64,000 nt of DNA from an uncultured Clostridia bacterium (GTDB lineage: Bacteria > Bacillota > Clostridia > Christensenellales > UBA1242): NCBI GenBank assembly GCA_934746645.1, contig CAKVFE010000002.1, forward strand, positions 26,044 through 90,043, written 5' to 3'. A program made the position numbers and the translations under genes. This document shows positions 3,522 to 54,115 of this stretch, in pieces (position 1 is the stretch's first letter; each line of letters opens with the position of its first letter). Below the pieces are notes generated by a model that was not told the origin of the DNA, searched no databases, and was given only the letters and a program-made list of their open reading frames with translations.

Positions 3522-3884
3522 ATGCTTAATGGTAAAGAACGCAAAGTTATGCAGTATCTATATACTACTTGTATTGGTAAGCGAAGTGTACTTGTTGACC
3601 CCAACGATATACTCAACCATTTACAACCAAAATACGAGATTAATAATATCGAACTAGAAGAAATACTTAATGGTTTGGTAATAGATAATTATATAGATAT
3701 AGTCAACTCTGACAAGAATGGCAAATTAATATATTGTATATCACTAAAAGCTAAAGGCGAAGGCTATGAAAGAGAAGTTAAAAATTCAAAGAAAAAACTT
3801 TATCTTTTACTTACCCGAACTATTATTTTAGCTTGCATTTCATTTGCTGTAACTATGATACTTAAAGCAATTTTTAAATTTTAA
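3522..3884 (+). CDS. Small tail-anchored protein of unknown function (paralog b)
   Basis: 120 aa, 7 nt after paralog a, with the same architecture (ELEEILNGL, NYIDIV, C-terminal TM LLLTRTIILACISFAVTMIL). Confidence 0.55.
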   Translation: MLNGKERKVMQYLYTTCIGKRSVLVDPNDILNHLQPKYEINNIELEEILNGLVIDNYIDIVNSDKNGKLIYCISLKAKGEGYEREVKNSKKKLYLLLTRTIILACISFAVTMILKAIFKF

Positions 3885-3907: not shown

Positions 3908-3921
3908 AAAACATTTGTTCG
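3908..3921. promoter_or_regulatory. Candidate LexA/DinR (Cheo-type) SOS box, imperfect
   Basis: AAAACATTTGTTCG compared with the Firmicute consensus CGAACATATGTTCG. The right half is perfect; the left half reads AAAC instead of GAAC. It lies 17 nt upstream of the -35 of the promoter facing uvrBA. Confidence 0.25.
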
Positions 3922-3938: not shown

Positions 3939-3967
3939 TTTACATTATTTTTAATATAGACTATAAT
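3939..3967 (+). promoter_or_regulatory. Near-consensus sigmaA-type promoter
   Basis: TTTACA (3939-3944), a 17-nt spacer, then TATAAT (3962-3967). The predicted TSS is about 10 nt before the first repeat unit. Confidence 0.5.
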
Positions 3968-3983
3968 TAGTATGTTATGGTAT

Positions 3984-4437
3984 TATAAACTATGTGATGT
4001 TGATTTACTCACTATGTTCGTAAATCAAGTTGCTAATCGCAACAACCATTGCTACACAATGGATACATAGTTTTGATTCGGCGTCAGTTTATGCTAAATG
4101 CCACTCCGTGTCGCTTGCATAAACTTCCTTGAGTATAAACTATGTGATATTGTATTGTTCACTTTGTTCACAATACAAGTTGCTAATCGCAATTCCACGA
4201 TAAATCGTGGCATCACAGTTTGAATAAACATCAGTTATACGAAAATATTGCTTTGCACTGCTTTCGTCTAACTTCCGATAATATAAGCTATGTGATGTTG
4301 ATTTACTCACTATATTCGTAAATCAAGTTGCTAATCGCAACAACCATTGCTACACAATGGATACATAGTTTTGATTCGGCGTCAGTTTATGTTAAATGCC
4401 ACTCCGTGTCGCTTACATAAACTTCCTTGAGTATAAA
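3984..4437 (+). repeat. Tandem A-B-A array of a ~150-nt multi-hairpin element (units 3984-4133, 4134-4281, 4282-4431)
   Basis: Units abut directly, and each starts TATAA(A/G)CTATGTGAT. The two A units are near-identical. The B unit shares the helix layout but has compensatory changes in the helices (details in findings). Confidence 0.9.
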
Positions 4438-4480
4438 ATACAATTTTAGACAATAATTAAAATACAATTAGTTAGGTGTT

Positions 4481-6444: not shown

Positions 6445-9258
6445 ATGCTTAAAGATATTGTTATTAAAGGCGCAAGGGAAAACAATTTAAAAAATATTGA
6501 TGTTACTATACCAAGGGGACAATTAGTTGTATTTACTGGTGTTTCGGGTAGTGGTAAAAGTACATTGGCTTTTGACACAATTTTTGCAGAAGGTCAAAGA
6601 AGATATATTGAGAGTTTATCAAGTTATGCTCGTATGTTTTTAGGTCAAATGCACAAGCCAGATGTTGATATTATTGAAGGATTAAGTCCAAGTATTTCTA
6701 TAGACCAAAAGACAACTTCTCACAATCCTCGTAGTACTGTTGGTACAGTAACCGAAATCTATGACTATCTAAGATTGTTGTATGCACATATTGGTACACC
6801 ATATTGTCCTAACTGTAAAAAGCCTATTTCTACTCAGACAATAGACAATATTATTGACCAAGTTTTGACATTAGAAGAAGGTACAAAGATTGTTATACTA
6901 GCACCAGTTGTAAGAGGCAAAAAGGGTACTTTTGCTAAAGAATTGGCCGAATACTTGAAAGAAGGATATTTAAGAGTAAAAATTGATGGCAATGATTATA
7001 TGCTTGATGAAGACATTGTTTTGGATAAAAACATCAAACATAATATTTATTTGACTATAGATAGACTTATTATTAAGCCAGAAATGCATACAAGACTTGC
7101 AGAAAGTCTAGAAAATGCTCTTAAACTTACTAATGGTGTTGTTATTGTCGAAGCCAATGGTACAGAAACATTGTATAGTACCAATCATAGTTGTCCAGAG
7201 TGTGGATATAGCATAGAAGAAATTGCACCTAGACTATTTAGTTTTAATACTCCATTTGGAGCTTGTCCAAAATGTAGTGGTTTAGGTTTTAGACAAGTTA
7301 TGGACGAAACAAAGATTATTAAAGACCGTAATTTGAGCTTATTACAAGGTGCTATCAATGCTTCAGGTTGGGCGTATGACACTGGACTAGGCAATATGTT
7401 TTATAAAGCAGTTGCCAACAAATTTGGTGTTGATGTCAATACTCCAATAAAAGATTTACCTAAAGAAATGTTAAATATGGTACTATATGGTACTAATGGC
7501 GAAAAGATAGATGTCACATACCGAATGAAAGGTGTACTTACAACTTCAAAAATGAAGTTTGAAGGGGTTATTCCTAATCTTGAGAGAAGATATAGAGAAA
7601 CCAATTCTGAGTACGCTAAAGGCGAAATTGGCAAGTATTTAAGCGAAATTGAATGTGATATGTGTCACGGAAAAAGATTGAAGCAAGACGCTCTTAATGT
7701 TAAGATTAAAAAATATAATATTATCGAACTTACAGATTTATCTGTTACAAAAATTAGCGAATTTATAGAAGGTTTAAAACTTAACAAAACACAAGAACAA
7801 ATTTCAGCTCCAATATTAAAAGAGATAAAGGCTAGACTTAACTTTTTAATTAATGTTGGATTGGGATATTTGACTTTAAGTCGTACTGCTTCAACATTAA
7901 GTGGTGGAGAAGCACAAAGAATAAGACTTGCTACCCAAATAGGTAGTGGACTTACTGGTGTACTATATATTTTGGACGAGCCAAGTATAGGATTACATCA
8001 AAGAGATAATGATAGATTGCTTGCTACTTTAAAAAATCTAAGAGATTTAGACAATACAGTTATAGTAGTAGAACACGATGAAGATACTATAAGAGCTGCA
8101 GACTATATTGTTGATATTGGACCTTATGCTGGTGTCAATGGTGGCGAAGTAGTAGCAACAGGAAAAGTAGAAGACCTAATCAAATCTCCAAGAAGTATTA
8201 CTGGTAAATATTTAAGTGGCGAATTAAAGATAAGTGTACCTCAAAATAGAAGACCTATTGAAAAAGGTTATATTGAGATAAAGGGCGCTAAACAAAACAA
8301 TTTAAAAAATATTGATGTCAATATTCCTGTAGGTGTTATTACTGCCATAACTGGAGTATCTGGAAGTGGTAAGAGTAGTTTAATCAATGAGATATTATAT
8401 CCAGCTAGTAGCAATGTCCTTAATAAGAGTAATATTGCAGAAGGCAAATATAAAGAAATACTAGGACTAGAAAAACTTGATAAAGTAATCAATATTGACC
8501 AAAGTCCAATAGGTCGTACTCCAAGAAGCAACCCAGCAACATATACCAATGTTTTTAATGATATTAGAGAACTATTTAGCAAAACCACAGACGCTAAAGA
8601 GCGTGGTTATAACGCTGGTAGATTTAGTTTTAATATACCAGGTGGAAGATGTGAAAATTGTTCTGGTGGTGGTATCAACAAGATAGAAATGTTCTTTTTA
8701 CCAGATGTTTATGTTACTTGTGATGTTTGTGGTGGTAAGAGATATAATAAAGAAACTTTGCAAGTTAAATATAAAGGAAAGAGCATATACGATGTCCTTA
8801 ATATGACAATAGAAGAGGCTTGTGTCTTCTTTGAAAATGTTCCTAAAATATACAACAAATTAAAAACACTTAATGATGTTGGCTTAGGATATATTAAACT
8901 TGGACAACCTGCTACAGAATTAAGTGGTGGCGAAGCACAGAGAGTTAAACTTGCTACAGAGTTGAGTAAGCGTAGCACAGGCAAATCACTTTATATTTTG
9001 GACGAACCTACAACAGGTCTTTCTATGTATGATGTAGATAAACTTATAAAAATTCTTAATAGATTGGTTGCTAATGGCAATACAATAGTTGTTATTGAAC
9101 ACAACTTAGATGTCATTAAGATAGCAGACTATATTATTGATTTAGGACCAGAAGGTGGAGAAAATGGTGGACAGATTGTAGCCGTTGGTACTCCAGAGCA
9201 AATAGCAAAAAATAGTAAAAGTATTACAGGAAAGTACTTAAAATCCTATCTAAAATAA
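6445..9258 (+). CDS. uvrA: Excinuclease ABC subunit A
   Basis: 937 aa. Two ABC ATPase modules (GVSGSGKST, GVSGSGKSS; LSGGEAQR twice) and zinc-finger Cys clusters. Starts 2 nt after uvrB. Confidence 0.97.
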   Translation: MLKDIVIKGARENNLKNIDVTIPRGQLVVFTGVSGSGKSTLAFDTIFAEGQRRYIESLSSYARMFLGQMHKPDVDIIEGLSPSISIDQKTTSHNPRSTVGTVTEIYDYLRLLYAHIGTPYCPNCKKPISTQTIDNIIDQVLTLEEGTKIVILAPVVRGKKGTFAKELAEYLKEGYLRVKIDGNDYMLDEDIVLDKNIKHNIYLTIDRLIIKPEMHTRLAESLENALKLTNGVVIVEANGTETLYSTNHSCPECGYSIEEIAPRLFSFNTPFGACPKCSGLGFRQVMDETKIIKDRNLSLLQGAINASGWAYDTGLGNMFYKAVANKFGVDVNTPIKDLPKEMLNMVLYGTNGEKIDVTYRMKGVLTTSKMKFEGVIPNLERRYRETNSEYAKGEIGKYLSEIECDMCHGKRLKQDALNVKIKKYNIIELTDLSVTKISEFIEGLKLNKTQEQISAPILKEIKARLNFLINVGLGYLTLSRTASTLSGGEAQRIRLATQIGSGLTGVLYILDEPSIGLHQRDNDRLLATLKNLRDLDNTVIVVEHDEDTIRAADYIVDIGPYAGVNGGEVVATGKVEDLIKSPRSITGKYLSGELKISVPQNRRPIEKGYIEIKGAKQNNLKNIDVNIPVGVITAITGVSGSGKSSLINEILYPASSNVLNKSNIAEGKYKEILGLEKLDKVINIDQSPIGRTPRSNPATYTNVFNDIRELFSKTTDAKERGYNAGRFSFNIPGGRCENCSGGGINKIEMFFLPDVYVTCDVCGGKRYNKETLQVKYKGKSIYDVLNMTIEEACVFFENVPKIYNKLKTLNDVGLGYIKLGQPATELSGGEAQRVKLATELSKRSTGKSLYILDEPTTGLSMYDVDKLIKILNRLVANGNTIVVIEHNLDVIKIADYIIDLGPEGGENGGQIVAVGTPEQIAKNSKSITGKYLKSYLK

Positions 9259-37299: not shown

Positions 37300-37926
37300 T
37301 TATGATATATGTAGTTTACTTGTTTTTTCTTCTAAATACTCATTGTATTTTTTTTGTTCCAAATTGGTAAGCTTATCAACAAATGCTTTTTGCTGTTGAT
37401 TTAGTTTATTGTACTTTTCGTTAGGAGCCCAACTATCTTCAAAATATATGCGTTTGTGATGTCCACGCCAAGTTTGTTTAATTTCGTTGCCTAATGCGTG
37501 ATACATAAGTTGTAAAAATTTATATTCGTTGGTTTCATTTTCTTGTTCGTTTAATTTAGAATTTGATACGCCTTTTATTTTTGCAACAGGGCATATAGTA
37601 CCACTAGAATATCTTTGACCAACTTTATCAGCGTGAGCTTGTGCCATTTGATATACATATTTTCCTAGTCCAGTACCTTGATAATCATAACGAGTTATAA
37701 AGTATTCGATATAACAGTTGTTGCAATCTAGGTCATATTCGATAGATGTTGCTGGACGCATATAATCGTCTTCGTCCAATAATACTATTTGATATTTTCT
37801 TTGTCTTATTTCGTTAATTGTAAACCAAGCAACAAAAGACCTGTTTGCTTTTGGAACAAAAACGATTCTTGCTATAGAATCTTTGTCATTGGATTTTATG
37901 GTGTCTAAAACTTCTTCTAATGTCAT
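37300..37926 (-). CDS. GNAT-motif paralog 1 (208 aa)
   Basis: Start moved to the ATG at 37926 (AGGAG 7 nt upstream; the N-terminus MTLEEV matches paralog 5, MTLEEL). Motifs: YDYQGTGLGKYVYQMAQAHAD, ICPVAKIKGVS, FLQLMYHALGN. Confidence 0.8.
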   Translation of the reverse strand: MTLEEVLDTIKSNDKDSIARIVFVPKANRSFVAWFTINEIRQRKYQIVLLDEDDYMRPATSIEYDLDCNNCYIEYFITRYDYQGTGLGKYVYQMAQAHADKVGQRYSSGTICPVAKIKGVSNSKLNEQENETNEYKFLQLMYHALGNEIKQTWRGHHKRIYFEDSWAPNEKYNKLNQQQKAFVDKLTNLEQKKYNEYLEEKTSKLHIS

Positions 37927-37958
37927 TATAGAACTCCTAATCAATTAATTACATATTT

Positions 37959-37987
37959 ATTATATCATATAATTGTCCATTTGTACA
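37959..37987 (-). promoter_or_regulatory. sigmaA-type promoter of paralog 1 (a duplicate of the paralog 5 promoter)
   Basis: Minus strand: TGTACA, a 17-nt spacer, then TGaTATAAT. The block TGGGTATGTACAAATGGACA...ATATGATAT is shared with 41047-41084. Confidence 0.5.
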
Positions 37988-38016
37988 TACCCAACTTAAA
38001 AGTGTTGCGATGATAA

Positions 38017-38320
38017 TATAAACTATATGATGTTGATTTACTCACTATGTTCGTAAATCAAGTTGCTAATCGCAACAACCATTGCTACACAATGGATACA
38101 TAGTTTTGATTCGGCGTCAGTTTATGTTAAATGCCACTCCGTGTCGCTTGCATAAACTTCCTTGAGTATAAACTATGTGATGTTGTATTGTTCACTTTGT
38201 TCACAACACAAGTTGCTAATCGCAATTCCACGATAAATCGTGTCATCACAGTTTGAATAAACATCAGTTATACGAAAATATTGCTTTGCACTGCTTTAGT
38301 CTAACTTCCGATAATATAAA
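38017..38320 (+). repeat. A-B pair of the ~150-nt multi-hairpin element (units 38017-38166 and 38167-~38320)
   Basis: Near-identical to units A and B at 3984-4281, differing only by a few point changes. Lies between paralogs 2 and 1, in the antisense orientation to them. Confidence 0.9.
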
Positions 38321-38350
38321 AAAGACTAAGCAATTTTACTTAGTCTTTTA
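38317..38350 (-). terminator. Rho-independent terminator after paralog 2
   Basis: AAAGACTAAG/CTTAGTCTTT 10-bp stem flanked by A- and T-runs. Confidence 0.6.
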
Positions 38351-38353
38351 TTA

Positions 38354-39052
38354 TTAATTTGTTTTACCTTTTTTATTAATATCATCTAAATAATCAAATC
38401 TATGTATGTACTCATTATATTGATGTTTTTCGTACTTTACAGCATCTTTAATAAATTTTAGTTGTTCGTCATTAAGTTTTGCTGTTTTTTCTCCAAGTTT
38501 CCATTTATCAGAAAAAGTTAGGATATCAATATCTCCTGCTTCAACTTTGGTTATTTTATTGCCAAGAGCGTGATACATAAGGGTTAGGAAAGTATATTCT
38601 TTTTCTGTACAATCTTCTTTATTGTTTGATACACCTTTAATTTTGCCAACAGGGCATATCATACCTTCAGAGTATGGAGTTTTTAATATATCAGCGTGAG
38701 CTTGTGCAAGTTGATATATGTATTTACCTAGTCCAGTACCTTGATAGTCATATCTTGTTTTAAAATAACAAATATAAATTCCACTATTATTAATTTGATA
38801 TCTGATAAGTGCAACTGGATCTAAAGGGTGCTTTTCGTCTTGCAATATTATTTGGCAGTTTCTTGTTTGAAAATCGTTTATAGAAAATGAAACAATAAAT
38901 TTTCTTTTTGCTTTATCAACATAAACAATATTTGATGGTTCTTCTTTACCGTCATCTTTTAAAATAGATTTAAGCAAAAATGTATAGTTTATATCCAAAT
39001 TGGTATCAGTATCAACACTTTTTGTATCGTCAACGAATTTTGATTTATCCAT
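38354..39052 (-). CDS. GNAT-motif paralog 2 (232 aa)
   Basis: YDYQGTGLGKYIYQLAQAHAD, ICPVGKIKGVS, FLTLMYHALGN, KLNDEQLKF. Confidence 0.8.
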   Translation of the reverse strand: MDKSKFVDDTKSVDTDTNLDINYTFLLKSILKDDGKEEPSNIVYVDKAKRKFIVSFSINDFQTRNCQIILQDEKHPLDPVALIRYQINNSGIYICYFKTRYDYQGTGLGKYIYQLAQAHADILKTPYSEGMICPVGKIKGVSNNKEDCTEKEYTFLTLMYHALGNKITKVEAGDIDILTFSDKWKLGEKTAKLNDEQLKFIKDAVKYEKHQYNEYIHRFDYLDDINKKGKTN

Positions 39053-39053
39053 A

Positions 39054-39710
39054 TTATTTACTCTTATCCTTTTTATTTTTTGATTCTAGATATTTTTGGT
39101 TTTGTTTCATTTCGTACTCAACCATTTTTTCTAAAAATTCTTTTTGGTTTTCGTCTAACTTTTCTAACTTTTGTCCGTGTTTCCAGTTGTCTTCAAATGT
39201 TAAGTCAACACCTTGATAATTACTTTTTTCTATTATCTTATTACCAAGAGCGTGATACATAAGAGCTAAAAATTTAAATTCTTTTTCAATGCTATCATCA
39301 CTATCTGAAGATACACCTTTTATATCATCAACAGGGCAGATATAACCATCTGAAAATTTAAGACCAAGTTTGTCAGCGTGTGCTTGAGCAAGTTGGTACA
39401 AGAATTTGCCAAGTCCAGTACCTTGATAATCATATCTTGTTTTAAAATATGAGATGTGCATACCATAATCTCTAAGTTCGTATCTTATAAACGATACAGG
39501 CTCAACTATAGTAGTAGGTCCATCTACCAATGAAATTTGGCAAAGTCGACCCATTTTTGCACTGTACTTAAAAGTTATTATCAAATCTCTTTTTGCTTTA
39601 GGTACATATATTAGTTGAGCAGGTGAGCCAACTCCGTTGTAGGATTTTGCCCATTTTATTGTGTCTTTTTCTTCTTGAGTTAGTGGTCTTGTGTTTTTAT
39701 CTTTTGACAT
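39054..39710 (-). CDS. GNAT-motif paralog 3 (218 aa)
   Basis: YDYQGTGLGKFLYQLAQAHAD, ICPVDDIKGVS, FLALMYHALGN, KLDENQKEF. There is a 1-nt gap to paralog 2. Confidence 0.8.
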   Translation of the reverse strand: MSKDKNTRPLTQEEKDTIKWAKSYNGVGSPAQLIYVPKAKRDLIITFKYSAKMGRLCQISLVDGPTTIVEPVSFIRYELRDYGMHISYFKTRYDYQGTGLGKFLYQLAQAHADKLGLKFSDGYICPVDDIKGVSSDSDDSIEKEFKFLALMYHALGNKIIEKSNYQGVDLTFEDNWKHGQKLEKLDENQKEFLEKMVEYEMKQNQKYLESKNKKDKSK

Positions 39711-39722
39711 TTCTTTTTGTCC

Positions 39723-40313
39723 TTATTTAGTCTTTTCTATTTTTAAGTTTAATTTATTATCATATTCAAGCATTGAATCCAAAAATTTTAATTGTTCATT
39801 ATTTAGTTTTGCTATCTTTGTATTTGGTTTCCAGACATCTTTAAATGAGTCTAATTGTATACCGGGATATAAATCAGATTCATTTTGTATTTGATTGCCA
39901 AGTGCGTGATACATTAGCTTTAAAAAATTCATTTCTGTTTCGTATGTTTCTTGTGGTGTCCCAGTAATGCCTTTTATTGCTCCAATAGGGCTAATAATAC
40001 CATGAGAACAACATATTTTATACTTATCGGCGTGAGCTTGAGCAAGTTGATACAAGAATTTACCTATGCCTTTACCTTGATAGTCATAATCAGTTTTAAA
40101 AGAAGATATATAGCATTTGTCTTCGTGTAAGTCATATTCAATAGTTGATATTGGGTCAGTTGATTCAACATCATATAGAATTAAGTCAGCATAAATATCT
40201 TTTCTTCTATATCTTAAAACATAATCCTTATCAGCTCTATCAATATGTACTTTTTTAATATATGATGAAGGGTATCTTCTTGTAAGTCTTTCTTCCAATT
40301 CATCTATAATCAT
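39723..40313 (-). CDS. GNAT-motif paralog 4 (196 aa)
   Basis: YDYQGKGIGKFLYQLAQAHAD, ISPIGAIKGIT, FLKLMYHALGN, KLNNEQLKF. Confidence 0.8.
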   Translation of the reverse strand: MIIDELEERLTRRYPSSYIKKVHIDRADKDYVLRYRRKDIYADLILYDVESTDPISTIEYDLHEDKCYISSFKTDYDYQGKGIGKFLYQLAQAHADKYKICCSHGIISPIGAIKGITGTPQETYETEMNFLKLMYHALGNQIQNESDLYPGIQLDSFKDVWKPNTKIAKLNNEQLKFLDSMLEYDNKLNLKIEKTK

Positions 40314-40326
40314 AGTTTACTTCCAA

Positions 40327-41016
40327 TTATTTTTGATTGTTATTAATTTTTGCATCAAGAGTTTGTGTACTTTTATATTGTATTATTCTTTCGTATTTTA
40401 ACATTGAGTTGACAAATTCTTTTTGCTCAGTATTTAATTTTTCATATTTTTGGTTGTGTGTCCAACTATCTCTAAATTTTGTTATTGGTTTACCATTACT
40501 TTTGGATTCGATAATAGTATTGCCAAGAGCGTGATACATAAGTGCTAAAAATTTGCGTTCTGCTTTGTCAGAATCTACACCAGATTTTGTTACACCTTTA
40601 ATATCATCTAGGGGAGAGATTACACCATAAGAATTATTGATGTTGGTGCAATCCATATGTGCTTGAGCTAATTGGTAGATATATTTGCCTATACCTTTAC
40701 CTTGATAGTCATAACTTGTTTGAAAATGAGCTATATAGTATTCTCTTTGTTTTTCAAAAGAAATTATTTTTTCATCACTATTAGGATTGTTGCTGTATGT
40801 AGTAACTGGGTTTTCTGTAAGTTGATACCATATTTGTGCTATTGGAGCAAAACATCTTATTTCGTCCATAACCAAAATTTTGCAAGTCTTAAATGGTGGC
40901 ATTTCTTTAGTAAATGCCAATAAAAAATTCTTTTGTGCTTTTGGTATATACACAATTTTTGTTGGCATATTAGGATTGCAAAATTTAATTTTCTCTTGAA
41001 GTTCTTCTAATGTCAT
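40327..41016 (-). CDS. GNAT-motif paralog 5 (229 aa)
   Basis: Start moved to the ATG at 41016 (GGAG 8 nt upstream). YDYQGKGIGKYIYQLAQAHMD, ISPLDDIKGVT, FLALMYHALGN, KLNTEQKEF. It has a ~20-aa insertion before the motif strand. Confidence 0.8.
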   Translation of the reverse strand: MTLEELQEKIKFCNPNMPTKIVYIPKAQKNFLLAFTKEMPPFKTCKILVMDEIRCFAPIAQIWYQLTENPVTTYSNNPNSDEKIISFEKQREYYIAHFQTSYDYQGKGIGKYIYQLAQAHMDCTNINNSYGVISPLDDIKGVTKSGVDSDKAERKFLALMYHALGNTIIESKSNGKPITKFRDSWTHNQKYEKLNTEQKEFVNSMLKYERIIQYKSTQTLDAKINNNQK

Positions 41017-41046
41017 TTTCAAAACTCCATAATATATCTTATATAT

Positions 41047-41075
41047 ATAATATCATATATATGTCCATTTGTACA
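41047..41075 (-). promoter_or_regulatory. sigmaA-type promoter of the paralog 5-2 operon
   Basis: Minus strand: TGTACA, a 17-nt spacer, then TGaTATTAT. Confidence 0.5.
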
Positions 41076-41189
41076 TACCCATATTTTTCAAAATTTGATA
41101 TTTTTATATAAATTTTAATTGTTTATTTATAGAGTTTTGACAAAGTAAGTCAATAATGTTATTAATAAATATATACTATGGAGAAAAAT

Positions 41190-50017: not shown

Positions 50018-50704
50018 TTATGTAATGGTATTATTTGTTTTATTATCAATGTCTTCATCATTTTTAGTGTCAGAAACATTATTAATATTGTTATTTATTG
50101 GTTCTTCTTTTTCGTTGTTATCGTCTACAACATTGGTGTTGTCAATATTATTTTCTACTGTTTTCTTTCTATTAAATATAACATCTAAAATAGGTGTTTC
50201 TTTCTTTAACAAACAATAATATATAAAGCAGATTACAGAACTTAAAAAAGTTATTATTTTAAACACCATTGAGATATAAGCACCAATGACAGCATTGTAT
50301 ATTACATACGAACCATTGTTGATGATGTATGAAACACGCAAAATTGCTGGATTGTCTTGCCAACTACCGTATCCAGCAGAAAGTAGGGCAACAAGTGGAA
50401 GTAAATCAAGGGCATCTTGCCAAGTCAATATTGTTGTTACGACAAAACCAATTTCAAAAACTATAAGCCATATAATGTTAGGCTTCAATTTCTTTAAAGA
50501 ATAAAACATAAAAATGAAAGTTCTTATTGTAGCAACTATACATATTATTGCTGTTGTAATTCTATTAAAAGAAAAATATATTATGACAGACAATACATTG
50601 TTGATTGTATAGTAAAGCATCATTTTCCATTTTTGCTTTTGAAGTATAGCAATAACCGAAACAATGACACTTAATATTTGAAAAATAATTTGAACTGCTT
50701 CCAT
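50018..50704 (-). CDS. YgjV-like inner membrane protein with an Asn/Asp-rich C-terminal tail
   Basis: 228 aa with about 5 TM. The N-terminus and size fit the YgjV family. SD AAAGGA. Confidence 0.5.
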   Translation of the reverse strand: MEAVQIIFQILSVIVSVIAILQKQKWKMMLYYTINNVLSVIIYFSFNRITTAIICIVATIRTFIFMFYSLKKLKPNIIWLIVFEIGFVVTTILTWQDALDLLPLVALLSAGYGSWQDNPAILRVSYIINNGSYVIYNAVIGAYISMVFKIITFLSSVICFIYYCLLKKETPILDVIFNRKKTVENNIDNTNVVDDNNEKEEPINNNINNVSDTKNDEDIDNKTNNTIT

Positions 50705-50964: not shown

Positions 50965-51261
50965 AAAATCCCGAATAAAAAAAGTACTCCGTAAGGAGTA
51001 CTAAGCTGGTGCCGAAAGTGGGACTTGAACCCACATGATATTGCTATCGCGGGGCGACTCGTAAAGTAAATAGTCCAGTGGACTATTTATAGATAGCGAA
51101 ACAGAGTGAAGCGATAAGCCGGGAGCAACTTGTTTGCGGTCAGGCTCCGACAGGAGTTTGATGTCCCGACTCAAAATCCCGAATAAAAAAAGTACCCCGT
51201 AAGGAGTACTAAGTTGGTGCCGAAAGTGGGACTTGAACCCACATGATATTGCTATCGCGGG
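50965..51261 (-). repeat. Direct duplication with a 208-nt period: 89-nt blocks 50965-51053 and 51173-51261 (tRNA-Leu 3' half plus terminator plus flank)
   Basis: The two blocks differ at 2 positions. They are separated by a unique 119-nt GC-rich spacer (51054-51172). Confidence 0.9.
51007..51053 (-). pseudogene. Orphan 3' half of tRNA-Leu(CAA): variable arm, T-arm, 3' acceptor strand and CCA
   Basis: The reverse complement CCCGCGATAGCAATATCATGTGGGTTCAAGTCCCACTTTCGGCACCA is identical to the 3' 47 nt of the intact tRNA. No 5' half precedes it. Confidence 0.85.
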
Positions 51262-51301
51262 ATTTTGAGTCCCGTGCGTCTGCCAATTCCGCCATTTCGG
51301 C
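51215..51301 (-). tRNA. tRNA-Leu (anticodon CAA), CCA encoded
   Basis: GCCGAAATGGCGGAATTGGCAGACGCACGGGACTCAAAATCCCGCGATAGCAATATCATGTGGGTTCAAGTCCCACTTTCGGCACCA. It has a 7-bp acceptor stem, the anticodon loop CTCAAAA, a long variable arm (GATA/TATC) and the T-loop TTCAAGT. The terminator hairpin AGTACTCC...GGGGTACT plus T-run follows at 51185-51210. Confidence 0.93.
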
Positions 51302-51498
51302 ATAAATGTGAAATTTTCTTTTAATCGCTTTTATATAATATCAAATTGTTTGACGAAAATCAACAATAATAATTAATTTTGCAAAATTTGTTTATCATTT
51401 TTTATTTTTTATGTTTTATGGTACAATATTATATATATAATGGTTAATGTGTGATTAAATATGCTAACATATTAAATATTGGATTAAAGGTGTATATA

Positions 51499-54060
51499 AT
51501 GAAAGATAAATTTGTTATTATTGATGGCAATAGTCTTATCAACAGAGCATTTTATGCTTTACCACAACTTGCTAATGCAGAAGGTGTTATTAGCAATGGT
51601 GTTTTTGGTTTTGCGACAATACTTGTAAAAATAATTACCGAAATAAAACCAAAATATATTTGTGTTGCACTAGACTATGGCAAACACACTTTCCGTACAG
51701 ATATGTATGCAGAGTATAAGGGTACTAGAAAAGGCACTCCAGAAGAATTGAAAAGTCAATTTCCAATACTTAGAGATATGTTAAGTGCTATGGGTATACA
51801 ACATATTGAAAAAGAAGGAATAGAAGCCGACGATATTATTGGCACACTTACTCGTAGATTTGACACAGAAAATATTGTTGTTACTGGAGATAAAGATAGT
51901 TTTCAACTTATTAATGACAATACTTGGGTTATGTTTACTAAGCGTGGTGTAACCGAAACTATCAACTATGACCAAGCACAACTATTTAATGATTATGGTT
52001 TAAAACCTTTCCAAATAGTCGAACTTAAATCTCTAATGGGTGATAGCTCGGACAATATACCTGGTGTAAGTGGTGTAGGTGAAAAGACAGCTTTAAGTTT
52101 ACTTTATAAATATGAAACATTAGACAATGTCTATAACTATATAGATGAGATAACTGGAAAACTTAAAGAAAAACTTGTTAATAGTAAAGAAATGGCTTAT
52201 TTAAGCCACGCTTTAGCAACTATTGATACCAACTGTGACTTTGAATGTACACTAGAAGATTGTGAATATCAATTCCCATTTAACGAAGAAGTTTTAAAAT
52301 TCTTTAAACGCTATCAATTTAATTCGCTATTAAAAAAATCTAATTTGTTTGAAGAATCTCAACCTAAAACTTTCGAATATGAAAAAAGTATTGAACAATA
52401 CAATATAGATAGTCTTGATATTGTGCAACAAATATCTAATGAGATAAAAAAAGAGAAAAAAATATATCTTAATTTAAGTGGTGGAGTAAGTATCTTTGTC
52501 AATAATAGAGAGTACAATTTAAGTGAAAAAGTTGATTTGTTGACCCCAACTATTGAATGTGCTGATTTGTTTAATGGTTTAAAAGAAGTTTTTGAAGATG
52601 AAACAATAGAGAAATGTGTTTTTGATTATAAAAGCATATTGCATACATTGAAAAAGTATAATGTTGGTCTTAACAATGTTAGTTTTGATGTGTACTTAGC
52701 TAGATACCTTATCAATAACAACAATAAATCTAATATTAGTTTTGAAGATTTGCTTATTGAAAATAATCTTAACTTAAATTATAGAGCATACAATTTAAAA
52801 TCACTTGAAGAGATGTATGTTGACAATCTTAATCAGTTAAAGTTGACCAATTTGTATAACGATATTGAGTTACCGCTTACAAAAGTACTTTATAATATGG
52901 AAATAGTCGGTTTTAAGATTGACCAAGATGTACTATATCAACTAGATTCAAAGTTTGATACCGAACTTAAACAGGTTTCCAACGAAATTTATGATTTGGC
53001 TGATTGTGAGTTTAATCTTAATTCGCCAAAACAGTTGGGTGAAGTGCTATTTGACAAAATGAACTTGTATCACGGCAACAATAAAAAGAAAAGTACAGGT
53101 ATAGATGTACTTAACTCACTTAAAAACGACCATCCTATTATTGAAAAAATAATTAGATATAGACAAATTAGTAAATTGTATTCAACTTATATCAAATCTT
53201 TTGAAGAATTAATTAATAAAGATACTGGTAAAATATATACAACATTCAATCAGACATTAACATCTACTGGTCGACTAAGTAGTTCTGACCCAAATTTACA
53301 AAACATTCCAGTAAGAAGTGAAGAAGGAAAAGAACTAAGAAAAATGTTTGTTCCAAGTACATCTGACGGATATATTGTTTCGGCTGATTATAGCCAAATA
53401 GAACTTAGATTGTTGGCGTCTTTTTGTGGAGATGAAAAACTTATTGAAGCGTTTAGGCGTGGAGATGATATTCACGCACTTACAGCATCACATGTGTTTG
53501 GAGTGGATTTAAAAGATGTGACAAGCCAGATGCGTAGAGATGCAAAAGCTATCAATTTTGGTATCATTTATGGTATATCAGATTATGGACTTAGTCAAAA
53601 TATTGGCAGTACAAGAAAAGCTGCAAAAGAGTATATCGACACATATTTCTTAAAGTATCCATTGGTTAAAAAATATATGGACGACAATGTAGAATATTGT
53701 AAGAAAAATGGCTATATAAAGACATATTTTGGTCGTATCAGATTTATACCAGAAATCAATAATTCCAACTATAATATCCGTCAATTAGGTGAGCGTTGCG
53801 CTATGAATATGCCACTTCAAGGCTCTGCTTCAGATATTATTAAACTTGCTATGATTAGAGTTTACAATCGTATGAAAGATGAAAACTTACAATCAAAATT
53901 AATACTTCAAATTCATGATGAACTTATTGTTGATTGTGTTAAGTCCGAACTAGAAAAAGTCACAACCATACTAAAAGAAGAAATGGAAAATGTTGTTGAC
54001 CTTAAAGTTAAACTTGAAGTCAATGTAAGTTATGGTAAAGATTGGTACGAAGCAAAATAG
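51499..54060 (+). CDS. polA: DNA polymerase I
   Basis: Start moved to the ATG at 51499 (MKDKFVIIDGNSLINRAFYAL, the 5' nuclease N-terminus). Pol motifs are present: DYSQIELR, RRDAKAINFGIIYG, QIHDELIV. Confidence 0.95.
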   Translation: MKDKFVIIDGNSLINRAFYALPQLANAEGVISNGVFGFATILVKIITEIKPKYICVALDYGKHTFRTDMYAEYKGTRKGTPEELKSQFPILRDMLSAMGIQHIEKEGIEADDIIGTLTRRFDTENIVVTGDKDSFQLINDNTWVMFTKRGVTETINYDQAQLFNDYGLKPFQIVELKSLMGDSSDNIPGVSGVGEKTALSLLYKYETLDNVYNYIDEITGKLKEKLVNSKEMAYLSHALATIDTNCDFECTLEDCEYQFPFNEEVLKFFKRYQFNSLLKKSNLFEESQPKTFEYEKSIEQYNIDSLDIVQQISNEIKKEKKIYLNLSGGVSIFVNNREYNLSEKVDLLTPTIECADLFNGLKEVFEDETIEKCVFDYKSILHTLKKYNVGLNNVSFDVYLARYLINNNNKSNISFEDLLIENNLNLNYRAYNLKSLEEMYVDNLNQLKLTNLYNDIELPLTKVLYNMEIVGFKIDQDVLYQLDSKFDTELKQVSNEIYDLADCEFNLNSPKQLGEVLFDKMNLYHGNNKKKSTGIDVLNSLKNDHPIIEKIIRYRQISKLYSTYIKSFEELINKDTGKIYTTFNQTLTSTGRLSSSDPNLQNIPVRSEEGKELRKMFVPSTSDGYIVSADYSQIELRLLASFCGDEKLIEAFRRGDDIHALTASHVFGVDLKDVTSQMRRDAKAINFGIIYGISDYGLSQNIGSTRKAAKEYIDTYFLKYPLVKKYMDDNVEYCKKNGYIKTYFGRIRFIPEINNSNYNIRQLGERCAMNMPLQGSASDIIKLAMIRVYNRMKDENLQSKLILQIHDELIVDCVKSELEKVTTILKEEMENVVDLKVKLEVNVSYGKDWYEAK

Positions 54061-54065
54061 TTTGT

Positions 54066-54115
54066 GCTTTATATTATCGGAAGTTAGACGAAAGCAGTGC
54101 GAAGCAATATTTTTT
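54066..54115 (-). repeat. Truncated 3' fragment of a B-type element (minus orientation)
   Basis: GCTTTATATTATCGGAAGTTAGACGAAAGCAGTGCGAAGCAATATTTT is the reverse complement of the last ~48 nt of unit B (4234-4281), with 2-3 changes. It starts 6 nt after the polA stop. Confidence 0.8.

Follow-up and report, generated by a model that had tools for sequence, protein, structure and literature searches.

What does a thrice-repeated, strongly foldable sequence do between the promoter and the start codon of uvrB? The locus lies in a 64,000-nucleotide stretch of DNA from an uncultured Clostridia bacterium (assembly GCA_934746645.1, contig CAKVFE010000002.1, positions 26,044 to 90,043 of the forward strand), which was analyzed as a whole and is called the window here, and the initial annotation read the repeat as a uvrBA leader or a source of processed small RNAs. 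We found that the array is three copies of a non-coding mobile repeat family of about 145 to 165 bp, which is confined to one clade of uncultured gut Clostridia/Christensenellales with low GC. In front of uvrB it is a passenger whose insertion point lies about 10 nt inside the 5' untranslated region (UTR). As to how the units move, we favor, at a probability of roughly 0.55, a miniature, non-coding, structure-constrained element that would be integrated through a dif-like core by an Xer-type tyrosine recombinase.

The units A1 (3984 to 4133), B1 (4134 to 4281), and A2 (4282 to 4436, ending with the terminal core copy TATAA at 4432 to 4436) lie head to tail on the forward strand and measure 148 to 150 nt each. 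As written out for A1, a unit runs from a right arm (CTATGTGATGT) through the outer helix P1, which encloses P2, P3, and P4, to P5 and a left arm (ACTTCCTTGAG). In the minimum free energy (MFE) folds of all three units, P1, P2, P3, and P4 meet in a four-way junction that P1 closes, and a linker and P5 come next; energies are -35 to -40 kcal/mol, and z-scores relative to dinucleotide shuffles are -3.7 to -4.1. Folding of the reverse strand is just as good. The three abutting units with one architecture that the initial annotation had described were reproduced in both sequence and MFE folds, and the paired differences between the A and B subtypes are present as well (four pairs in P2, three in P4). 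B1 is the top match to the family covariance model, at 153 bits.

Conspecific alleles revealed that this array is an insertion. The species is common in human gut samples, the protein encoded just upstream of the site being listed in 226 blocks of the index searched. Exact look-up of the 120-aa protein encoded upstream (3522 to 3884) returned ten contigs, six of which have a spacer of 147 nt before uvrB and no unit; the unit-bearing spacers measure 296 nt (one unit, n = 1), 444 or 446 nt (two units, n = 2), and 595 nt (three units as in the window, n = 1). The empty alleles retain the promoter, the Shine-Dalgarno sequence (ribosome-binding site), and the start codon, which identifies the array as inserted DNA. 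With hyphens marking the boundaries, the left end of the insertion reads GGTAT-TATAA (3979 to 3988, +), empty alleles read GGTAT-TACAA-AATAC or GGTAT-GATTA-AATAC, and filled sites read GGTAT-TATAA-body-TATAA-AATAC. There is one core copy in the empty allele and there are two in the filled one; across insertion sites the repeat is the same asymmetric TATAA(A) in a fixed orientation, and adjoining units in arrays have exactly one TATAA(A) in common.

The bases around the insertions outline a target. Positions -3 to -1 before first units are T, A, and A in 75 to 88% of cases, and position +1 after last units is A in 76%, with a weaker T, T, A behind it, so that the target resembles TAA-TATAAA-TTA. 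In 29 of 41 cases TATAAA follows ACTTCCGATAA; the other hexamers are, with one exception, a single mismatch away, and TTTATA never occurs. At locus L024, two 100% identical units both start with TATAA and end with TATAA and TATAG, respectively, and these unequal cores fit a right-hand core that derives from the target. Aligned as inverted repeats, the termini agree at 8 of 12 positions in the main subfamily (7 of 12 for the A-type end) and at 10 of 11 in a palindromic sister subfamily.

The conspecific alleles are also mosaics. A-type P2 is combined with B-type P4 and P5 in allele L123 and in unit 2 of L122, B-type P2 is combined with A-type P4 and P5 in L121 and in unit 1 of L122, and new P2 types appear in unit 2 of L121 and unit 1 of L125. 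The breakpoints fall inside the units, in the common 18-mer, in P3, or in the linker. Recombination at the junctions cannot explain such swaps, which therefore point to homologous recombination or gene conversion among copies as well.

Copies elsewhere confirm that the family is dispersed. A second array, A3-B2 (38017 to 38319, +), is 97% identical to A1-B1 and anti-oriented to both flanking genes, lying antisense between the terminator and the promoter of minus-strand genes. It completes a series of P5 pairs described in the initial annotation, which is present in the sequence (C4094-G4117, T4392-A4415, and T38127-G38150). Its B2 copy (38167 to 38314) is partly decayed, with three uncompensated helix-breaking changes and a z-score of -0.3, so that single copies also decay. 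Unit C1 (50732 to 50875, -) represents a divergent third subtype just 5' of the gene at 50018 to 50704 (-) (59 bits, E = 7e-8), and a fragment consisting of a B-type P5, the left arm, and the core (ACTTCCGATAATATAA) lies at 54057 to 54113 (-), directly after the stop codon of an 869-aa open reading frame (ORF; 51451 to 54060). GC skew is positive over the entire window with no switch; we rejected a tie to replication direction because the skew is uniform yet the four loci in these 64 kb occur in both orientations.

Beyond the window, the 5' 18-mer occurs in at least 116 loci in a scan of one genome per species, and among the matches listed, genuine units are present in more than 30 species-level metagenome-assembled genomes (MAGs) of low-GC Clostridia/Christensenellales. 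The carriers are labeled uncultured Clostridia, Christensenella, Christensenellaceae, or Christensenellales and come from human, deer, and chicken gut. Several MAGs hold four to five loci, and many matches sit at contig ends; the repeat breaks MAG assemblies. All copies are intergenic, and near-identical ones occupy unrelated loci, both within L024 and in the window (3984 and 38017). Among 47 arrays, 10 are co-directional with the neighboring genes (>>), 13 run against them (<<), 5 lie between divergent genes (<>), and 3 between convergent genes (><), the rest being at contig ends. The initial annotation had recognized no known family, and our searches agree: Rfam 15 gives no match at the gathering score and only two chance-level matches at E <= 10, no CRISPR array or tRNA was found at the array, and the conserved element sequences were not found in the literature searched. 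The exact junction is absent from IMG/VR, where 38 chance matches to the 18-mer contain no unit, and a phage origin was rejected on this result.

Across the family, the fold is conserved. Fifty-five distinct full units were extracted, and the covariance-model alignment took in 75 copies. RNAalifold on the raw MAFFT alignment gave a poor consensus, since hairpin registers differ between subtypes, and it was replaced by per-sequence folds together with the covariance-model alignment. In the former, almost all units reach the common architecture despite several unrelated hairpin sequence types. In the latter, 89.6% of the cells pair, versus 69% in shuffles and 29 to 50% with slid partners, and 35 of 42 pairs show two-sided changes. 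As this alignment leans towards the model, an additional alignment-light check was made along 30 minimum-spanning-tree edges joining copies that differ by 12% or less; it returned 21 compensated double changes and 46 one-sided ones, where independent substitution would yield, by rough estimate rather than computation, well under one compensated double. The compensatory changes that had first drawn attention to the array are thus real, and they hold up as copies are added.

Two qualifications apply to this covariation. Because modules are exchanged among copies, part of it reflects whole-module swaps; single-pair compensated changes between near-identical neighbors are not module exchange, an example being L041, where one unit has GTATGC/GCATAC and the other GTGTGC/GCACAC. 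Furthermore, a strand signature from wobble pairs was sought in the family alignment and on close branches, and no asymmetry between G·U and A·C was found. The 75-copy alignment contains 164 G·U and 86 A·C, but 63 of the G·U come from one doubtful terminal pair, and its removal leaves 101 versus 86; branches between close relatives show 13 versus 11. The fold is conserved and is not strand-specific. Outside the helices, three unpaired segments are conserved, namely, TATAAACTATGTGATGTT at the 5' end (its conservation owes something to ascertainment through the search seed), CATCAC(AG/ATAG)T...CATCAG 3' of P4, and ACTTCCGATAATATAA at the 3' end.

The junction between two units, ACTTCCGATAA-TATAAA-CTATGTGATGT (28 bp), appears to be built like an Xer/dif core, with a canonical Firmicutes XerC-side arm and center and a divergent XerD-side arm. 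When all 128,000 28-mers of the window were compared with the Firmicutes dif site, the distribution peaked at 8 to 9 matches and unrelated sequences reached at most 19, while the B1/A2 junction ACTTCCGATAA-TATAAG-CTATGTGATGT (4271 to 4298, +) was the best match, at 22 of 28. Against the predicted Macrococcus caseolyticus dif (ACTTCCGATAATATATATTATGTAAACT), a reference that may differ from the dif of the host, the junction scores 23 of 28, made up of 11/11 in the left (XerC) arm, 5/6 in the center, and 7/11 in the right arm. The dif predicted for Desulforudis has an identical left arm as well. Among the predicted sites listed by Kono et al. 2011 (supplement to PMC3025954) are ACTTCCTAGAA TATATA TTATGTAAACT in B. 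subtilis, ACTTCCGATAA TATATA TTATGTAAACT in M. caseolyticus, and ACTTCCGATAA TAGATA TTATGTTGCCT in Desulforudis; the center is TATAAA in Chlorobium, and the site of Dehalococcoides contains TATAAA CTAT. The target logo of the element, TAA-TATAA-A-T-T-A, corresponds to the inner dyad of a dif core.

The sister subfamily (L075, L046, L100, and L076) supplies a second version of this site. Its junction is the palindromic ACTTCCTAGAA-TATAAA-TTATAGGAAGT, whose left arm is identical to the XerC-side arm of B. subtilis and agrees with the right arm, as an inverted repeat, at the 10 of 11 positions given above. P1 has co-varied accordingly, pairing TTATAGGAAGT with an internal ACTTCCAAT. The right arm of the site thus forms the 5' strand of P1. 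Between subfamilies the right arm varies, always together with its internal complement, and the left terminus and the core stay constant. In L075 (2913 to 2992, +) we also observed a "mini-unit" of about 75 nt between a main-type and a palindromic-type unit, made up of a right arm (ACTATGTGTATATTCG...) and a left arm (ACTTCCTAGAA) with a short hairpin region in between; it suggests that the fork P2 to P4 can be lost with the arms retained.

Some further dif-like sequences came to light. A metagenome scan for the left arm, the core, and a canonical XerD arm found seven sites, all in organisms of 40 to 55% GC without units, and no dif of the host. In four metagenome contigs (L165, L166, L167, and L171; 43 to 55% GC), a common, conserved left flank of about 60 nt precedes a complete dif-like site, ACTTCCGATAATATAAATTATGTCAACT, whose left arm and center are as in the element; it may be a true dif or the attachment site of an integrative mobile element exploiting Xer (IMEX) in an unrelated organism. 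The flank 5' of a unit in L024 (about 4068 to 4092, +) carries TTTCCGATAACGGAAG, in which TTCCGATAA, similar to a left arm, precedes its own inverted repeat; a junction of another type may have left this remnant. We also considered the alternative register CGATAATATAA-ACTATG-TGATGTTAAAT, the right arm of which agrees at 10 of 11 positions with what we take to be the E. coli XerD-side arm. This register was rejected, since the repeat at both ends of the insertion is TATAA(A), not ACTATG.

A unit consists, in order, of the right arm (CTATGTGATGT in the main subfamily), the fork of the variable hairpins P2 to P4, the internal complement of the right arm (closing P1), the linker, the likewise variable P5, and the left arm (ACTTCCGATAA). 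According to the mechanism that we favor, an excised unit circle, or a single strand derived from it, would carry one complete site, and an Xer-type recombinase (host XerC/D or a relative) could integrate it at an intergenic AT-rich pseudo-core, TAA-TATAAA-TTA. Each integration would recreate a usable site at the unit end and let head-to-tail arrays accumulate, which homologous recombination between the conserved segments might subsequently reshuffle; such reshuffling would account for the mosaic A/B hybrids and for the polymorphism of zero to three copies. The hairpins would be kept by selection on propagating copies. A folded single strand is probably involved in integration, and in the most speculative step of this scheme the right arm would have to pair in it, as in a CTX-type attP or an integron attC.

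Several observations weigh against this mechanism. No recombinase was found associated with the element, and the neighboring ORFs show no family of proteins that recurs beside the arrays. The insertions lie at dozens of unrelated intergenic sites and not at the chromosomal dif or terminus, where, to our knowledge, every characterized IMEX integrates, and the targets have only about 9 to 12 AT-rich bases in common. A double-stranded circle of 150 bp is a strained intermediate. In folds of circularized units, pairing covers the right arm and a portion of the core, but in the main subfamily the left arm stays mostly unpaired, which leaves a CTX-like duplex across the whole 28-mer of such a single strand unsupported. 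Since the 5' 18-mer was the seed of the species scan, the conservation of that end is partly ascertainment. In the A subtype, the left arm ACTTCCTTGAG has no inner ATAA, the best-conserved part of the tabulated dif sites (PMC3025954). Finally, the layout of a terminal inverted repeat (TIR), a fixed short repeat, and another TIR would also suit abutting transposon-derived miniatures.

This last point introduces the strongest competitor, an ordinary MITE (miniature inverted-repeat transposable element) moved in trans by a DDE transposase. The conserved termini would then be imperfect TIRs and TATAA(A) a target-site duplication of 5 to 6 bp at a strongly preferred AT-rich target; the likeness to dif would be convergent, and arrays would form when a new copy enters the duplicated target of one already in place. 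In favor of this reading are the small size of the units, their lack of coding sequence, high copy number, intergenic position, and insertion polymorphism; in addition, their termini are flush with TATAAA and form the inverted repeats described above, and the target logo has dyad symmetry outside the core. Precedent exists in the bcr1-type repeats of the Bacillus cereus group, structured repeats with the fixed pentamer TTTAT, for which a "site-specific recombination-like mechanism" has been suggested (PMC6542083). With the wider set of MITEs and structured repeats (bcr1 to bcr18, Correia, BOX, and RUP), the element also shares stable predicted folds. However, its fold is multi-branched and kept by covariation instead of being one long TIR hairpin, and its junction is dif-like. 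The flanking repeat is asymmetric and has a single orientation, whereas a DDE target duplication should occur in both; the cores around identical units can differ, as in L024; and the right terminus varies among subfamilies while the left terminus and core do not. The internal P1 complement is always present, although a transposase that binds duplex ends would not need it.

The search for a mobilizing partner bears on the same question. Within the 856 kb (roughly 0.86 Mb) of carrier DNA examined, a portion of the genomes concerned, neither an insertion sequence (IS) with matching ends nor an autonomous partner was seen, and the DNA between the two identical L024 units holds ordinary genes. The initial annotation had named an IS-related MITE as the reading that would displace its own; the fixed direct repeat, the imperfect inverted termini, and the insertion polymorphism of such an element are all present, and a related IS did not turn up in that DNA. 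All-against-all clustering of 304 neighboring ORFs gave no recurrent protein family, and no recombinase was recognized among the ten window ORFs scanned against Pfam. One XerC/D-like ORF lies 3 kb from a unit in L010, with no enrichment of such ORFs near units. In L033 (936 to 1114, +), a unit truncated after P4 abuts a tRNA gene and a phage-type integrase ORF is present at the same locus, and in L040 a related integrase ORF (from 1908) starts 286 nt 3' of the unit at 1472 to 1623; these cases are too few to call an association. Taken together, the fixed asymmetric core, the unequal cores, and the internal complement favor site-specific recombination over a DDE transposase, although none is decisive, and we consider the DDE-moved MITE a serious contender that is nevertheless unlikely.

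Comparison with known Xer-dependent and structure-dependent systems refines the Xer-type reading. Like the element, IMEXs have no recombinase of their own, form head-to-tail arrays, and use a dif-like attP in which the XerC arm and center are conserved and the XerD arm is divergent, and the CTX-type attP is a folded single strand of about 150 nt built from two inverted sites spaced by about 90 nt (PMC5357621). In the element, about 65 to 80 nt separate the right arm from its inverted internal copy, and the two close the fork. On the other hand, IMEXs are kilobase phages or islands at a single chromosomal dif, and the units here are 150 bp, gene-free, and spread over many intergenic sites; their left arm is not duplexed in the predicted fold, and the use of Xer is deduced here from sequence.

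The attC site of integrons is likewise bound by an Xer-related tyrosine recombinase as a folded single strand, with conserved structure, variable sequence, and variable, sometimes branched terminal structures. Although the element shares this conservation of structure over sequence, its termini do not read RYYYAAC/GTTRRRY (R''/R'; judged by eye without a motif search), its units abut without cassette ORFs, and its copies are dispersed and not confined to one array. Neither an integron integrase nor attI was seen, and integrases are not enriched among the neighboring ORFs. The plasmid pdif modules of Acinetobacter are also DNA bounded by dif-like XerC/D sites and thought to be moved by Xer. These modules occur mainly on plasmids with their sites in inverted orientation, and they carry genes, whereas the units here are gene-free, directly oriented, and chromosomal.

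By their defining features, then, the element is not a member of the IMEXs, of the bcr1-type repeats, or of the NIMEs (neisserial intergenic mosaic elements) with their dRS3 sites. We may tentatively go further and regard it as a "mini-IMEX", the first gene-free miniatures that spread by hijacking Xer, with a folded single-strand substrate whose right arm is made duplex by the internal complement, abundant pseudo-dif targets, and selection on structure at the DNA level, a possibility for which we would not claim even odds. If true, the spread of a miniature element by Xer would be an undescribed route, in which the chromosome-dimer resolution system carries 150-bp elements through the whole genome, away from dif. 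Natural structure-dependent tyrosine recombination would then extend beyond integrons and filamentous phages, and the mini-IMEX would be the tyrosine-recombinase counterpart of MITEs.

Next comes the possibility that the arrays are maintained by the host like the NIME/dRS3 repeats of Neisseria or the bacterial interspersed mosaic elements of enterobacteria, as landmarks for recombination or structure (sites bound by a recombinase or a nucleoid protein, for example, or insulators of transcription) that spread by recombination rather than by transposition of their own. NIMEs form intergenic arrays of variable units of 50 to 150 bp separated by a short conserved inverted-repeat site, the target of a recombinase or of phage integration, and unit number in syntenic arrays varies between strains (PMC1797815). 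The array in front of uvrB follows the same pattern, and the mosaic shuffling of modules and the intergenic position of all copies agree with it. In contrast to the dRS3 site, ATTCCCN8GGGAAT, the element junctions read ACTTCCGATAATATAAACTATGTGATGT, and there is no sequence relationship; the neisserial RS units have no reported common fold, and the recombinase associated with dRS3 is a phage-encoded transposase/recombinase and not Xer (PMC1797815). The clean presence or absence of the array with a single core in the empty allele indicates insertion, and near-identical copies at the unrelated loci already mentioned (in L024, and at 3984 and 38017) argue in the same direction. We therefore judge host maintenance improbable.

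A functional structured RNA, either a cis-acting uvrBA leader or tandem small RNA genes with hairpins under RNA-level selection, is the reading with which the initial annotation began. All five helices covary strongly, z-scores are near -4, and pairing of the left-arm region with the linker in the A subtype involves three G·U pairs. Upstream of the array lies a strong promoter, TTTACA-17-TATAAT (3939 to 3967, +), which the initial annotation had pointed out; it scores 11/12, nothing inside the array scores better, and it is native to uvrB, being present in element-free alleles and no part of the element. The array, located between this promoter and the start codon of uvrB, followed by uvrA, is thus probably co-transcribed at this locus, and that part of the leader proposal stands. 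The remainder, a dedicated leader or RNA gene, does not, because the array is missing at the same locus in conspecific strains and the family is dispersed and randomly oriented to its neighbors, with no linked gene family; it is not a uvrBA regulatory RNA. The antisense position of the array at 38017 to 38319, the lack of any conserved promoter upstream of first units beyond TAA-TATAA, the lack of a U-tract terminator 3' of P5, the near equality of G·U and A·C, the equally good folding of both strands, and the failure to find an Rfam family even at E <= 10 all speak against RNA-level function, which we regard as very unlikely. For annotation, this means that strong covariation is not by itself proof of an RNA gene, being in this case the mark of a mobile DNA repeat. 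For the host, the consequences are strain-variable 5' UTRs, the uvrB leader growing from about 60 nt without the array to about 510 nt with it, and dispersed homology for rearrangements.

The remaining candidates can be dismissed briefly: a per-unit promoter at TATAAA has no consistent -35 element, with only TAA conserved upstream of first units; P5 as an intrinsic terminator lacks a U tract; single-strand transposition of the IS200/IS605 or REP/RAYT type disagrees with subterminal hairpins that differ between copies in one genome and with orientation independent of the replication strand; a self-cleaving ribozyme, considered for its conserved core and variable helices, has no Rfam match, and a hammerhead would require CUGAUGA where the minus strand reads CUGAUGU; TRF finds no CRISPR array at this position; ARAGORN and Rfam find no tRNA in the units; and type III antitoxin repeats would precede a toxin gene, whereas uvrB and uvrA follow here.

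Around uvrB, some minor features were observed. About 18 nt 5' of the -35 element of the uvrB promoter, AAACATTTGTTCG (3909 to 3921, +) resembles, with one mismatch, what we take to be the Gram-positive LexA (Cheo) box GAAC-N4-GTTC. It is kept in element-free alleles, so that native SOS control would lie 5' of the insertion. The end of A2 and its flank (4412 to 4439, +) form a weak promoter-like sequence, CTTACA-16-TAAAAT (9/12), that is missing from empty alleles; the number of promoter-like sites in the array region is not above chance. The uvrA ORF (937 aa) contains internal direct repeats (D7, D10, and D14, within 6455 to 8957, +; 74 to 81% identical), which presumably reflect the two ATPase halves of UvrA and are ordinary.

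Two other regions of the window contain repeats of different kinds. A tRNA-Leu(CAA) gene (51215 to 51301, -) is accompanied by a 98% identical copy of its 3' half and of the terminator hairpin at 50965 to 51053. Between the two copies lies a relatively GC-rich segment of 119 nt (51054 to 51172) with no tRNA, transfer-messenger RNA, or Rfam match. The whole region (50965 to 51301) looks like the scar or att duplication of an integrant at a tRNA 3' end, or an unrecognized RNA joined to a 3' end that resembles a tRNA. The stretch from 37300 to 41022 (-) holds five paralogous ORFs in tandem (about 196 to 232 aa; repeat families D2 to D5), and the two of them scanned against Pfam gave no match. A promoter-like segment of 41 nt stands at both ends of this cluster (37953 to 37993 and 41041 to 41081), and its two copies are 90% identical.

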